64,000 bases of DNA from Desulfobacterales bacterium (GTDB taxonomy: Bacteria; Desulfobacterota; Desulfobacteria; Desulfobacterales; UBA5852). Under the pieces are notes generated by a model. It was not told the DNA's origin. It saw nothing but the letters and a program-made list of their open reading frames with translations, and did not search any database. Shown here piece by piece: positions 42,978 through 47,105 of this stretch; the stretch's first letter is position 1, and each line of letters begins with the position of its first letter. The translations under genes and the position numbers were made by a program. The stretch spans positions 2,208,001 through 2,272,000 of the forward strand of contig CAXXVS010000002.1 in NCBI GenBank assembly GCA_963674755.2. Direction: 5' to 3'.

Positions 42978-43880
42978 CTACTCTTCCGGTCCATCCATAT
43001 CGGGATAAATTCTCCTAAAGCATTCCGGGCAGATGCCATGGCTGAAGGCCGCATCGGAATGCTCCTCAATGTAGGCCTCTATCTGGTTCCAGTAGCCCTT
43101 GTCGTCGCGGATCTTCTTGCAGGCGGAACAGATGGGCAGCAGCCCGCTCAGCGTCCGGACCTTGGCGATCGCCGCCTGCAATTCCGTGATGAGCTGTTTG
43201 CGTTCTTCGATTTCACGCCGCAGTTGCCCGTTGGTCGCCTCCAGCTCGGCCGTGCGTTCTTCCAGCCGATCGGCAAAGGCTTCCTTCAAGGCGATGAGTT
43301 CTTTATTCGCGGCGTTGATGCGCCTGGCCGTGGTGTAGGTCAAAATGCCAAAGAGGGTCGTCATGGCGCCCATGCCCATGTGAAGCGTGTCGCCGATCGC
43401 AAAGAAGCGAATGGCGATGGGGACCAGGGCCGGGATGCTGAAGGACAGGAAGACCGGCAAAAGCGGGGAAAAAACGCCCACCGCGCCTGCCACCATGCCC
43501 GCCAGAACGAAGGCGATGAAGACCTGGTGGGCGACCGAGTACAGCGGAAAAAGGAAAAGGCCGCTCGCCCCCCACAGCATACCGGCGATACCCAATCCCA
43601 GGATGAGAAGTTGCCCCCACCCCCGTATGGCTTCCTTGGTGTCAGGCGCTGTCAGGAATCGGCGGTTCAGCAGGAAGCGGATGAAGGATACCAGCAGGAG
43701 GGCCGTCAACCATACGATCAGTCGCCGGTGCGAAATTTGCTCCCACAGGACAGCGACAAAGATGGCCGCATTCACGATCGTGGCAACGATCCCGATGTTC
43801 GCGCGGGCGTAGATCTGGCCGACCAGAACAGGATAGATCCGCTCATCGAACGCGCGGAGGGTTTCTTGGCGGCGGTTCAT
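42978..43880 (-). CDS. Multi-TM sensor-like protein with coiled coil and a C-terminal Cys/His (CxxC...HGICPxC) domain
   Basis: About 5-6 TM segments followed by LSGLLPICSACKKIRDDKGYW...FSHGICPEC. Confidence 0.8.
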   Translation of the reverse strand: MNRRQETLRAFDERIYPVLVGQIYARANIGIVATIVNAAIFVAVLWEQISHRRLIVWLTALLLVSFIRFLLNRRFLTAPDTKEAIRGWGQLLILGLGIAGMLWGASGLFLFPLYSVAHQVFIAFVLAGMVAGAVGVFSPLLPVFLSFSIPALVPIAIRFFAIGDTLHMGMGAMTTLFGILTYTTARRINAANKELIALKEAFADRLEERTAELEATNGQLRREIEERKQLITELQAAIAKVRTLSGLLPICSACKKIRDDKGYWNQIEAYIEEHSDAAFSHGICPECFRRIYPDMDGPEE

Positions 43881-44112: not shown

Positions 44113-44739
44113 TTACTTGCTGGCCACCTTGAGCTGGTCATCTTTTTCAGCGGCCGCCATCTTGTCCACGTCCGGCTTGTACATGAGGGCCGTGTCCATG
44201 CTGTAGGTCCAGGGCAGGCCCTCCCGCTGCCAGCCGCCGTCCCAGCGCTGGCCATAGAAGATGCTGGCCTTGTTTTTGTTCTTGCCGCCTTCGAAGCCGC
44301 CCATCAGGTTGAAAACCTTGTCTTCGGGCCAGCCGGCTTTGATGGCCTCGTTGCATCCCGCGCAGCTGCGGTTGCCGCTGCGGCAGAGGATGATCAGGGT
44401 GTCGGTCTGCGGGTTGAAACGCGCCAGCAGGTCCTTGCCGAAATCGGGGTTGTCCACCTCGACATAGCCCTTCTTGCCGACCTTGCTGGAGAGGAAACGG
44501 ATGGGGACGTTGTAGGCTCCCTCGGGGTGGCCCACGAACTGGTACTCCGCCCTGGTCCGGCAGTCCACCAGGAAGGTGTGCTCCGGGTTCTTCTTCAGCA
44601 TCTCAAAAGCATCGAGCGGGGTGACATCGCCGCCCAGGTGGGGTTTGTTGGCCTCGTAAGCAAAACCGGCCAGGGTCGGGGCGGCCACCATAACCAGCAT
44701 GGCCGCGACAAACGCTGTCAACCAAAATGCTTTTTTCAT
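44113..44739 (-). CDS. Exported rhodanese-domain sulfurtransferase
   Basis: Signal peptide; LVDCRT.AEY..VGH, active-site loop CRSGNR, NLMGGFEG and GW...GLPW; AAGGAG RBS. Confidence 0.9.
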   Translation of the reverse strand: MKKAFWLTAFVAAMLVMVAAPTLAGFAYEANKPHLGGDVTPLDAFEMLKKNPEHTFLVDCRTRAEYQFVGHPEGAYNVPIRFLSSKVGKKGYVEVDNPDFGKDLLARFNPQTDTLIILCRSGNRSCAGCNEAIKAGWPEDKVFNLMGGFEGGKNKNKASIFYGQRWDGGWQREGLPWTYSMDTALMYKPDVDKMAAAEKDDQLKVASK

Positions 44740-44789: not shown

Positions 44790-46139
44790 TTAGTCCGGGG
44801 GCCCTGTGTCGTTCGCCTGGATCGGCGGTATCATTTCGTCCGGAACCACCACGTCGGCGTTGGCCGCAACCTCCCGCTCATCCAAATCACGGATCCCCAG
44901 GAAAAGCGCGCGCCGGCCGTGGCAATTGTTGCAGGACTTGTTCTGGGGTGTGATGCGCCGGATGGAATGGGGCGCCGCGTCCGTCCAGGTGGGGTATTGC
45001 GCAAATTCTTTGAGGGCGCCCGGGCTGTAAAAGTCGAAGGTTCCCGGGACCACGGGCGGATGATGTTTGACCGTAAAGGTATAAGGACGCTCCGGTGTGG
45101 GATGAGGATTGCGGCCGATCTTGAAATCCAGCTCGGTTTTTTGGCACTTGAAATAGGCCATGCCTTTGGCATCGGCGCCCACATGACAGCTGTAGCACTG
45201 CTTGATGGGCTGGGCATGGCAGACCTGGCAGGCGGTTTTGCCGCGATGGATCCGGTGGGAAGGTATGGGCGCGTCTTCCGCGGCCGCCTCCGGATGGCAA
45301 GCCTCGCAGCGGGGTCGGGTGGCCGACGTGTGCCGGGTGGCGTCCTCACCGGCCGGCGCATGCATCTGGCCGGCTTGGTGGCAATCCATGCAGGTCATAT
45401 CCTCGTCCGCGAAATGGGTATCGGCAGCAAGATCCTTATTGAGTCCGGTGAATTCACCGAAAATGCGCCCGCCGTGGCAGCTGGCGCAGGTGGTCTCCAT
45501 GGGCGGTGTCTTGCGGAACTGGTGCTGCGCCAGAAAGCCGCCGTTCACGTAGTTCGGCCGGCTCACATGGCACTGGCCGCAGCTGGCGTGGCATTGGCTG
45601 CAGTGTCGCTCCCGGGCGGTTTCCATGGCGGCCTGCACCTTCTGGTCGGCCGGTCCCATGCGGCGGGCAATGGCGTTTCCGATGGGGGCAATCGTATAGT
45701 GGAGGCTTGCGGGGGCGGCGGCGCTGATGTCGGGATGACATTCACCGCAGGCGCCTTCCGGATCGGGAAAGGTGGGATCTTTGATCAGGCCCCGGTGGGC
45801 GGTCTGCCAATTCGGGTCTTGCGGGTTGCCGCCATGGCAGTCCACGCACGCAATCTGGCCGTGATCGCTATCGAGAAAGGCTTTGGCTACGTAAATCTTT
45901 TCGTAAGGCTCCAACGGAGCCAGAGGCCCCCCTCAGCCCTCGCCTTCGTTTTCAGCGGACACCTCGGGTTTCCCGCGGACCTTTTCCACCTCCCAGCCCA
46001 AACGGATGAGCTTCTTGACATCGGTATGGCACTGCACGCAGGTGCTGGCCGGCAACGGCTGACCGGCTGGCAGACATGGAAGGCCAAAAACACCCAGGGC
46101 GATGACGAACGCCCCCCTCAGATATCCGGCATGTTTCAT
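44790..46139 (-). CDS. Putative selenocysteine-containing multiheme cytochrome c (449 aa, 11 CxxCH, Sec at codon 69)
   Basis: ORFs 45933-46169 and 44790-45914 are in the same frame, separated only by TGA at 45933-45935 (..ENEGEG-U-GGPLAPLEPYEK..). The RBS, signal peptide and first CxxCH lie upstream of the TGA and ten CxxCH lie downstream. A SECIS-like hairpin follows the TGA. Confidence 0.85.
45907..45921 (-). promoter_or_regulatory. Candidate bacterial SECIS element
   Basis: mRNA reads UGA-GGGGGGCCUCU-GGCUCC-GUU-GGAGCC: a perfect 6-bp stem starting after an 11-nt spacer, with an apical loop beginning GU. Confidence 0.75.
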
Positions 46140-46402
46140 AGCGGCTCCTTGGCAATCGATTGGAAACAACGATACCAGATCAGGTCCGAATTTCCCGCTG
46201 AAGAAGAAGTAAATGCCGAAATGGGCAATATCCCATATATCAGGCCGATGTCAATGGGATAGTGCTCATATCAATTCCCTCTGGCGCAACCCACCGTTCA
46301 CGCCCCCCTGCCGGGCGAGACGTTGTCGATCCAACCACATGGAAAACGCACCGGAAGCCGACCAAAAGGCCGTCCGGTTTGTCACCGTCTACCCAACACG
46401 AT

Positions 46403-46666
46403 TCAATCCGAATCCATATAGCGCTCGCCCACCGGGACAGGCTCACCCGGACGCCAGGTCGAAAAATCCTTGGGCGCCACCAGGTCCTTGGCCCGGACAT
46501 GCTTGTCGATCCAGACGATGCGGGCATGGCATTCCCAAACCCGTTTGCCAAGTTGTCTCATCCGTTTGTTGAGCGCCTTTTCGGCCGCAAGCCGGCTTTT
46601 GTGGACGGAAAGGACTTCCTTCAAAGGGCGTTTGGAATCATTTTCATCATAGATCAACGCATACAT
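46403..46666 (-). CDS. Small hypothetical protein (87 aa)
   Basis: ATG 46666 with a strong AGGAGG RBS; plausible composition (MYALIYDE...WECHARIVW...TWRPGE). Confidence 0.7.
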   Translation of the reverse strand: MYALIYDENDSKRPLKEVLSVHKSRLAAEKALNKRMRQLGKRVWECHARIVWIDKHVRAKDLVAPKDFSTWRPGEPVPVGERYMDSD

Positions 46667-47105
46667 GGTGGACCTCCTATGGCTTGCAGGTAGACCCTTC
46701 AAGGCTGCCGGGACCGGCAACCCAGAGAGAAAGCACAGTTTGGAGGCAGAGCGGTATTCGCAGGCATCCGGAGGCGGGAAGATGTTGGACGCGGTTCCGT
46801 TGAAATCGGCTAGGGCAGGTAGGCGAAAGGCTGCTTCAGGGAGGTGTCAATTTGTGTTCGACGCCCGATCCTGTTGCTCGTAATAGATAATATTACCTGT
46901 AGGTTCTGTGTCAATGGCGGCTGGCCCGGCCGCAAAAAGAAGGCTGGCGTCGATAGGGCGGCCGCCACCGGCCAGCCTGGCATGACTTCCGACGAGCTTT
47001 TTCCCCATCGAGGACGGCGGTTTCATCCTGTAGGCGCGAAGGAAGACAAAAGTTCAAACGAGGGGATAGCGCGGTCGGCGGATAGCCCCTTCGGTGGGAA
47101 GCGAT

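Follow-up and report, generated by a model that had tools for sequence, protein, structure and literature searches.

The window, a stretch of 64,000 nucleotides from a Desulfobacterales genome, holds on its minus strand a gene (44790..46139) that is best described as a single CDS for an exported cytochrome c of 449 amino acids with 11 hemes and a selenocysteine predicted at position 69 (Sec69), as judged from the reading frame, the motifs, the family alignment, and an AlphaFold2 model. The frame running from 46139 to 44790 comprises 449 residues and is interrupted only by a TGA stop at codon 69 (45933..45935, minus strand; read 45935-45933), which is found in the context ENEGEG-stop-GGPLAPLE and would place the predicted selenocysteine in a G-U-G loop. 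CxxCH motifs occur at residues 34, 98, 131, 180, 187, 218, 250, 278, 304, 315, and 403, that is, one before the TGA and ten after it. The first one, the heme 1 motif CVQCH (46026..46040, minus strand), lies upstream of the TGA, and its Cys34 and Cys37 are invariant in 80/80 aligned homologues.

The start codon, ATG 46139, is preceded by the Shine-Dalgarno sequence AAGGAG (46145..46150, minus strand), which is seen directly in the sequence. Residues 1 to approximately 31 (46047..46139, minus strand) form a likely Sec signal peptide, recognized by eye from its basic n-region and hydrophobic core, and a similar leader is also present on the homologues in the alignment. The elements that an earlier note on this DNA had listed (ATG with AAGGAG, a signal-like leader, CVQCH, and ten more CxxCH motifs past the TGA) can thus all be read in the sequence. 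Further upstream, a sigma-70-like promoter match (TTGACA, a 16-nt spacer, and an extended -10; 10/12 consensus positions) is located at 46227..46254 on the minus strand, although three such sites were found where 0.9 are expected in shuffles, which provides no evidence of function.

When an ORF finder is applied, the gene comes out as two pieces, a front one of 68 residues and one of 374 aa that starts at TTG 45914. The latter has no signal peptide by eye, which bears out the statement of the earlier note that the downstream ORF alone lacks one. The genome contains no paralogue of the 449-aa cytochrome detectable by tblastn. In contigs assembled from four runs, the TGA is unaltered in the 40 differences listed, with 187 more rows beyond them, and this was not counted as evidence. 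The gene is flanked upstream by a 105-aa ORF (window 46403-46720, minus strand) and downstream by a gene for a 300-aa membrane protein (window 42978-43880, minus strand); neither matches a Pfam family at E 1e-5 nor recurs beside the homologues examined.

The codon-69 column was compared in 82 genome loci, this one included, after removing three duplicates (L001, L062, and L063) and a truncated locus (L081). It is occupied by TGA in 77 loci, by TGC in three, and by TGT in two, so that the homologues, for which the earlier note had proposed a check for TGA or Cys at this position, carry 77 TGA and 5 Cys codons. The 80 loci that could be fully aligned share 33-74% identity with this protein, and in them Gly68 is invariant and column 69 holds 75 TGA and 5 Cys. 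A class-level search retrieved 61 places in 56/401 genomes, with the TGA inside the match in 55 of them; five of the six remaining places are continuous Cys orthologues, and the sixth is locus L043. At the phylum level, 46 places were found in 44/401 genomes, 30 of which were fetched; ten class places and 16 phylum places lie outside the 82-locus set. A metagenome scan that used the single protein as query yielded 16 fetched loci, of which 13 reach the column, all with TGA (13/13). As far as can be judged from these alignments, the TGA at the codon-69 column is conserved far beyond chance, and codon 69 is almost certainly decoded as selenocysteine.

Locus L043 (4146-5687, genome G223) represents a fused cytochrome-rhodanese copy that keeps the TGA and in which most hemes are not in frame, owing to either a deletion or an assembly artefact.

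The TGA might instead be a real stop, either because the locus encodes a one-heme peptide and a separate ten-heme protein translated from TTG 45914, or because of a nonsense mutation or a sequencing error. Gene callers do make this same split, and a G-rich stretch lies ahead of TTG 45914. Nevertheless, in 77 loci, with identities as low as 33%, TGA is the only stop codon at this position (TAA and TAG do not occur), continuous Cys orthologues exist, and the ten-heme piece would have no export signal. This explanation is considered extremely improbable.

The selenocysteine reading is further backed by a predicted bacterial SECIS hairpin (45907..45921, minus strand), with a 6-bp stem and a GUU loop situated 17 nt after the UGA, which is assigned on the basis of model fit, covariation, and frozen codons. 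With an energy of -9.1 kcal/mol, it fits the bacterial SECIS model, which, according to PMC13188914, consists of a 3-9 nt loop with a G and a 4-16 bp stem, located 16-37 nt from the UGA and with an energy of -7.5 kcal/mol or lower. Using a scoring test of our own (stem of at least 5 pairs and hairpin energy of -5 or lower), a hairpin within 21 nt was detected in 65/77 TGA loci, in 0/5 Cys loci, and in 26/1130 true TGA stops of this genome. Widening the range to the full 16-37 nt gives 67/77 TGA loci versus 113/1130 control stops.

In an alignment of the hairpin from 46 TGA loci, which leaves out the Cys forms and three loci of other spacing, the share of paired cells is 93.2%; shuffles reach 81.1%, and slid controls no more than 47%. 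A total of 29 cells change on both sides, but they come from two pairs and mostly reflect one arm swap, which also alters the protein (APLE to EPLA); the covariation read from this alignment is therefore made up of few independent events. Two synonymous codons within the hairpin are frozen (Pro75 as CCG in 43/43 and Leu76 as TTG in 44/44 loci), while at the other 48 conserved degenerate sites one codon accounts for at most 0.84 (45 loci). These frozen sites also speak against a real stop. On the other side, single-sequence folding of the stretch gives a hairpin no stabler than shuffles (z -0.04 to -0.91), as a real stop would allow, so the SECIS case draws its weight from the comparison between loci. 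In the subgroup formed by L054 and L075, an extra codon moves the hairpin further from the UGA, to a spacing of 19-20 nt.

The genome encodes the machinery needed to read this signal: selA, two selB genes over the cut-off, two selD genes (each with a TGA), and two tRNAs with a UCA anticodon, a canonical tRNA-Sec being present. All four components (selA, selB, selC, and selD) for which the earlier note had suggested a search are hence accounted for. The co-occurrence of selA with the family was discarded as a line of evidence, as it is uninformative (54/55 carriers versus 392/401 genomes of the class).

Besides this machinery, a selC*-type tRNA(UCA) with A1:U72 and U73 is encoded immediately ahead of the second selB and of a cysS copy (G000 C1 787858-791365, which corresponds to L060 15859-19366, minus strand). 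The same gene arrangement has been described in Desulfobacterales, where the selC* tRNA is able to decode UGA as cysteine (PMC5389517). With this set in the genome, cysteine may take the place of Sec69 when selenium is short, and the question arises whether UGA is read as cysteine here, at least in that situation, by the selC* tRNA, the second SelB, and the second CysRS. However, since canonical tRNA-Sec, selA, selB, and selD are also present, such a pathway would be a backup and not a replacement. Moreover, the CysRS* described in PMC5389517 lacks the anticodon domain, whereas the cysS copy of this genome spans the whole TIGR00435 model. Cysteine decoding is thus regarded as very unlikely, and insertion of selenocysteine is the reading adopted below.

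Two further observations concern these genes. At G000 C1 774-781 kb (L060 2186-9266), the second selD (with its TGA) clusters with genes for a putative selenium transporter of the YedE family and a double-cubane reductase, as well as with a gene that by eye resembles SirA/YedF; the selC*/selB* set is some 10 kb away. A third cysS-like match (G000 C3 2619062-2620426) scores 338.6 bits, just below the cut-off, and is located inside a 764-aa frame.

In protein databases, 1024 proteins match the cytochrome at E 1e-10 or better. None of the best 120 covers more than 84% of the query, and the signal peptide, heme 1, and the Sec are missing from every one of them; where names are given among the matches, they are 'hypothetical protein' or a sulfurtransferase label. 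The proposal of the earlier note that this is an annotation-split family of periplasmic seleno-cytochromes is upheld by the conserved TGA/Cys pair, the SECIS element, the Sec machinery, and these homologues without heme 1. It would be a large selenoprotein family cut short by gene callers, which reaches annotation users as a ten-heme 'hypothetical' protein devoid of a signal peptide.

The family appears to have escaped previous inventories. NCBIfam 20.0 has no model over its cut-off for this protein, and the best E among 112 family members is 8e-14. 'Hypothetical protein DG' (GUxG motif, NF049953) was considered as the same family and discarded, as there is no NCBIfam match. The 2026 selenoprotein catalogue (Table 1 of PMC13188914, 119 families), through which the families of Haft and Tolstoy 2025 were covered, lists three heme/CXXCH selenoproteins, namely ExtKL, GSU2204, and an OTR-type octaheme protein, and the 11-heme family is absent from it. 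The accessible text of PMC12013277 (deep-Sep) mentions neither cytochrome nor heme. No description of the family was found in the literature on Sec, multiheme cytochromes, and rhodanese, a scope that does not extend to the candidate list of Deng et al. 2026. The 11-heme cytochromes constitute a real, widespread, and apparently uncatalogued selenoprotein family.

The closest known design is that of MccSep/ExtKL from Geobacter sulfurreducens (GSU2937-2936, NF040886), which likewise is a multiheme cytochrome c of the periplasm, has one Sec encoded by UGA and followed by a SECIS, is annotated as two genes, has Cys variants, and occurs in Desulfobacterota. MccSep, as described in PMC13510729, holds five hemes, a C-terminal Sec325, and an essential heme-ligating Cys239, and it reduces polysulfide with the Sec at a heme, as well as selenite. 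The differences are clear. Sec325 is located in a C-terminal Ig-like domain, while the protein studied here has eleven hemes and a Sec69 between hemes 1 and 2; in addition, MccSep needs the conserved Cys239, in contrast to the 11-heme family, which has no conserved second Cys. Searches with NF040886 (cut-off 250 bits) gave no match in the read-through protein at E 0.01, in the 112 members at E 1e-4, or in the genome. The view of the earlier note that this cytochrome is distinct from MccSep is in agreement with its 11 CxxCH motifs, its N-terminal Sec, the lack of a second conserved Cys, and the lack of an NF040886 match. The MccSep structures (9WT8 and others) are not among the listed fold matches, from a library that may not contain them. 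By its sequence, the 11-heme cytochrome lies outside the MccSep family, although its way of working may be similar.

TsdA and SoxAX, named as mechanistic relatives of MccSep in PMC13510729, offer a further comparison. Their hemes are His/Cys-ligated, and the sulfur adduct is borne by one chalcogen residue at a c-type heme; neither protein is among the sequence or fold matches listed, and the likeness is a mechanistic analogy only.

The rhodanese gene found next to the cytochrome (44113..44739, minus strand) begins 50 nt downstream of it, and the two genes likely share an operon. It encodes an exported single-domain protein of 208 aa with the loop CRSGNRS and Cys119 (Pfam PF00581, E 3e-13; PDB 2fsx, E 5.8e-15). 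A same-strand rhodanese is adjacent or fused to the cytochrome in 76/82 loci: downstream in 65, upstream in two, and scored as fused in nine, among which L082 may be an overlapping frame instead. Two of the six loci without a rhodanese stop at a contig edge. These counts rest on a profile built from these same neighbours, and the rhodanese call is independently backed for six of them by Pfam, NCBIfam, or PDB searches. The partner rhodaneses belong to several unrelated types, in-frame fusions included, which differ between subgroups and suggest that it is the function, and not one particular gene, that has been selected.

Rhodanese is also the sole recurring partner among the neighbours scanned. 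No conserved third partner gene was detected among 36 neighbour proteins (a subset of the 97 extracted), nor did a membrane anchor or a quinol oxidase recur among the neighbours scanned. A sigma-54 regulator and small NifB/X-like genes are found beside a few homologous loci, and locus L020 adjoins a gene for a Phs/Dms-like molybdoenzyme. The partner rhodaneses match the polysulfide-sulfur transferase Sud and single-domain rhodaneses (PDB 1qxn and 2fsx). Sud reportedly delivers polysulfide to Psr; its acceptor is thus a molybdoenzyme, while here the acceptor would be a seleno-cytochrome.

The fold of the cytochrome was predicted with AlphaFold2 from 112 sequences (pTM 0.84; pLDDT 88.5, falling to 81-84 in the blocks near residue 69), and the model shows little regular secondary structure. 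In a wide structure search, octaheme tetrathionate reductase (OTR, 1sp3) ranked first, with Z 8.9 and rmsd 4.4 over 260 aligned residues, followed by a next match of Z 4.2, and a model of a natural Cys form matched 1sp3 again (Z 8.8). A best Z of 7-8 is common in this search, so the OTR match is a moderate one. Foldseek found no match at E 0.001, and a second look with VIA gave Z 3.3. At the sequence level, a PDB search with the single protein retrieved no match, while the sequence profile matched 1sp3 with E 2.9e-8, and a profile alignment (hhalign) with the OTR of this genome reached 96.6% and was colinear from heme 3 to heme 9. The OTR model TIGR04315 (cut-off 375 bits) does not match this protein at E 0.01, and 28/112 family members match it weakly (best E 1.4e-8).

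These alignments and the model support that hemes 3-9 and 11 form an OTR-like core, to which hemes 1, 2, and 10 would be additions. Both families share the colinear heme order and the SLH/IHW, DxH, and C-terminal heme motifs, and they differ in the three extra hemes and the rhodanese partner of the 11-heme family. Heme 4 (motif Cys180-His184, 45588..45602, minus strand) aligns with OTR heme II in the profile alignments and is the candidate active-site heme; one alternative HMMER segment pairs heme 4 with heme III. OTR heme II corresponds to C74-H78 and is Lys-ligated (PMC3769277), and the Lys-ligated heme is the catalytic one, according to PMC13562315.

The cysteine of the NNFC motif of OTR is located just before heme II, where the 11-heme family has a variable, Cys-free helix. 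In OTR, this cysteine lines the active site. Sec69 is situated about 100 residues further upstream, and it would bring a chalcogen to the OTR-like pocket from another part of the chain. The combination of a lone Sec with an OTR-like heme core and a rhodanese partner that is nearly always present would be a design unlike that of MccSep.

Residue conservation in the 80 aligned loci defines the possible surroundings of Sec69. Nine non-motif His residues are near-invariant (93, 115, 147, 206, 242, 260, 295, 298, and 391), while His360 is kept in 66/80 and His179 in 60/80. With nine near-invariant His and one at 66/80 for 11 hemes, at least one heme must do without a conserved distal His. No invariant Lys is found between His147 and heme 4, and heme 4 probably has no second histidine. 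Arg225 and Asp240 are invariant, Arg269 is nearly so, and Arg160 appears in 76/80. Apart from position 69, no non-motif column holds Cys in more than 30% of the sequences. The earlier note had pointed to the Cys of YFKC, Cys332, as a partner of Sec69. This residue is indeed present here, but it is Cys in just 15/80 aligned homologues, which rules it out as a conserved partner.

More distant relatives were read, as proteins only, from the 209 cluster representatives at E 1e-30, of which the best 150 were used. These 150 include 53 split-type forms, 15 full-length proteins with Cys, and 34 full-length proteins with neither, and the other 48 were set aside because they were fragmentary, misaligned, or unclear. 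In 34 of the 49 full-length representatives, column 69 thus holds Trp, Arg, Tyr, Ala, or a gap. Trp or Arg at this column, which the earlier note had named as a sign of a simple nonsense mutation and which would favour a real stop, does occur in these distant relatives, while the closer 82 loci are all TGA or Cys. In a FastTree tree of 116 sequences (heme 2 onward, midpoint root, poor deep supports), many of the non-Cys forms branch off singly next to split forms, and ten of them group in one clade. This distribution suggests repeated losses plus one divergent, non-catalytic subfamily, and the Trp/Arg relatives look like no sign of a nonsense mutation in this gene.

The loss of residue 69 is accompanied by changes at two arginines. 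Arg225 is kept in 51/52 split-type forms, 11/15 Cys forms, and 9/25 non-Cys forms, and Arg269 in 47/49, 9/14, and 11/30, respectively, which fits an anion-binding site tied to residue 69. The association of Arg225 with residue 69 (Fisher p 0.048, uncorrected and among related sequences) gives a weak hint that both may belong to one site.

Some of these data are also compatible with a true selenoprotein that acts mainly as an electron carrier or store, in which Sec69 would either tune the potential as a heme ligand or serve as a redox switch that the rhodanese modifies. The mature chain amounts to 4.1 kDa per heme, within the range given for electron-transfer cytochromes in PMC7096707; the value for OTR is 6.1. 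In addition, many distant relatives have the same core without Cys or Sec, and the model is poor in regular secondary structure. However, Sec or Cys is kept in 82/82 closer loci, with a costly SECIS, and both the rhodanese linkage, fusions included, and the tracking of residue 69 by Arg225 count against such a role. We consider this role unlikely.

The reading that we prefer, by a narrow preference over doubt, is that Sec69, acting alone at an OTR-like heme, cleaves a persulfide bound to the rhodanese. Rhodanese carries sulfane sulfur on its Cys. One gene would be translated with SelB reading the hairpin and inserting selenocysteine at codon 69, and the 449-aa chain would be exported and gain its 11 c-type hemes, as expected from the signal peptide and from known cytochrome c maturation. 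The partner rhodanese, judging from its family, would load sulfane sulfur from polysulfide or thiosulfate onto its cysteine, forming a persulfide that Sec69, on its glycine-rich loop, would then attack. The resulting Se-S adduct would be reduced at heme 4 by electrons from the heme chain, with release of HS-. Unlike in MccSep, Sec69 would act alone at or on the heme, because there is no conserved partner cysteine. In a sulfate reducer (the host genome carries dsrA), the pathway would pass periplasmic electrons to zero-valent sulfur, although the opposite direction is possible. The points counted against this mechanism are the 4.1 kDa per heme, the 34/49 distant proteins without Cys or Sec, the moderate Z, the null Foldseek result, and the lack of an NNFC counterpart. 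Should it hold, the family would be a direct candidate for periplasmic zero-valent sulfur handling in sulfate reducers and relatives.

A different substrate for a Sec enzyme has also been weighed: thiosulfate/tetrathionate interconversion as in TsdA or OTR, oxidation of sulfide to sulfane sulfur, or reduction of selenite. The OTR-like core, the Phs/Dms-like molybdoenzyme gene beside L020, and the selenite reduction by MccSep (PMC13510729) are in line with it. Nevertheless, two genes of the OTR family that score over the cut-off, one of them with a TGA of its own, are already present in this genome, and the rhodanese partner points toward sulfane-sulfur transfer. A different substrate is considered unlikely.

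The earlier note had viewed Sec69 as catalytic or heme-ligating, a role that this residue may have. A more specific version, in which Sec69 would be the direct axial ligand (His/Sec) of the heme 4 iron, with sulfur loaded by the rhodanese, is put forward only tentatively. To our knowledge, no natural selenolate-ligated heme enzyme has been described. If true, the family would provide one, together with an unrecognised periplasmic sulfur-respiration route in about one seventh of the genomes of the class (56/401), and it represents a testable case of selenium bound at a heme.

Two other TGA-containing cytochrome genes of the same genome deserve mention. The OTR-family gene with its own TGA (G000 C3 1218865, plus strand; frame ~1217623-1220184) is a 13-heme form over the TIGR04315 cut-off, with the TGA exactly at the NNFC cysteine plus a hairpin, and it is probably of the GenBank-annotated Sec-OTR type listed in Table 1 of PMC13188914. 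A third TGA-split multiheme cytochrome (G000 C3 1258248, plus strand; frame ~1257792-1260323), with 1 + 7 CxxCH motifs around MGKQ-TGA-PPSFR, matches OTR weakly and has a hydrophobic region at its C-terminus; a SECIS-like hairpin lies 16 nt past the TGA. This gene is a candidate for a further selenoprotein family.
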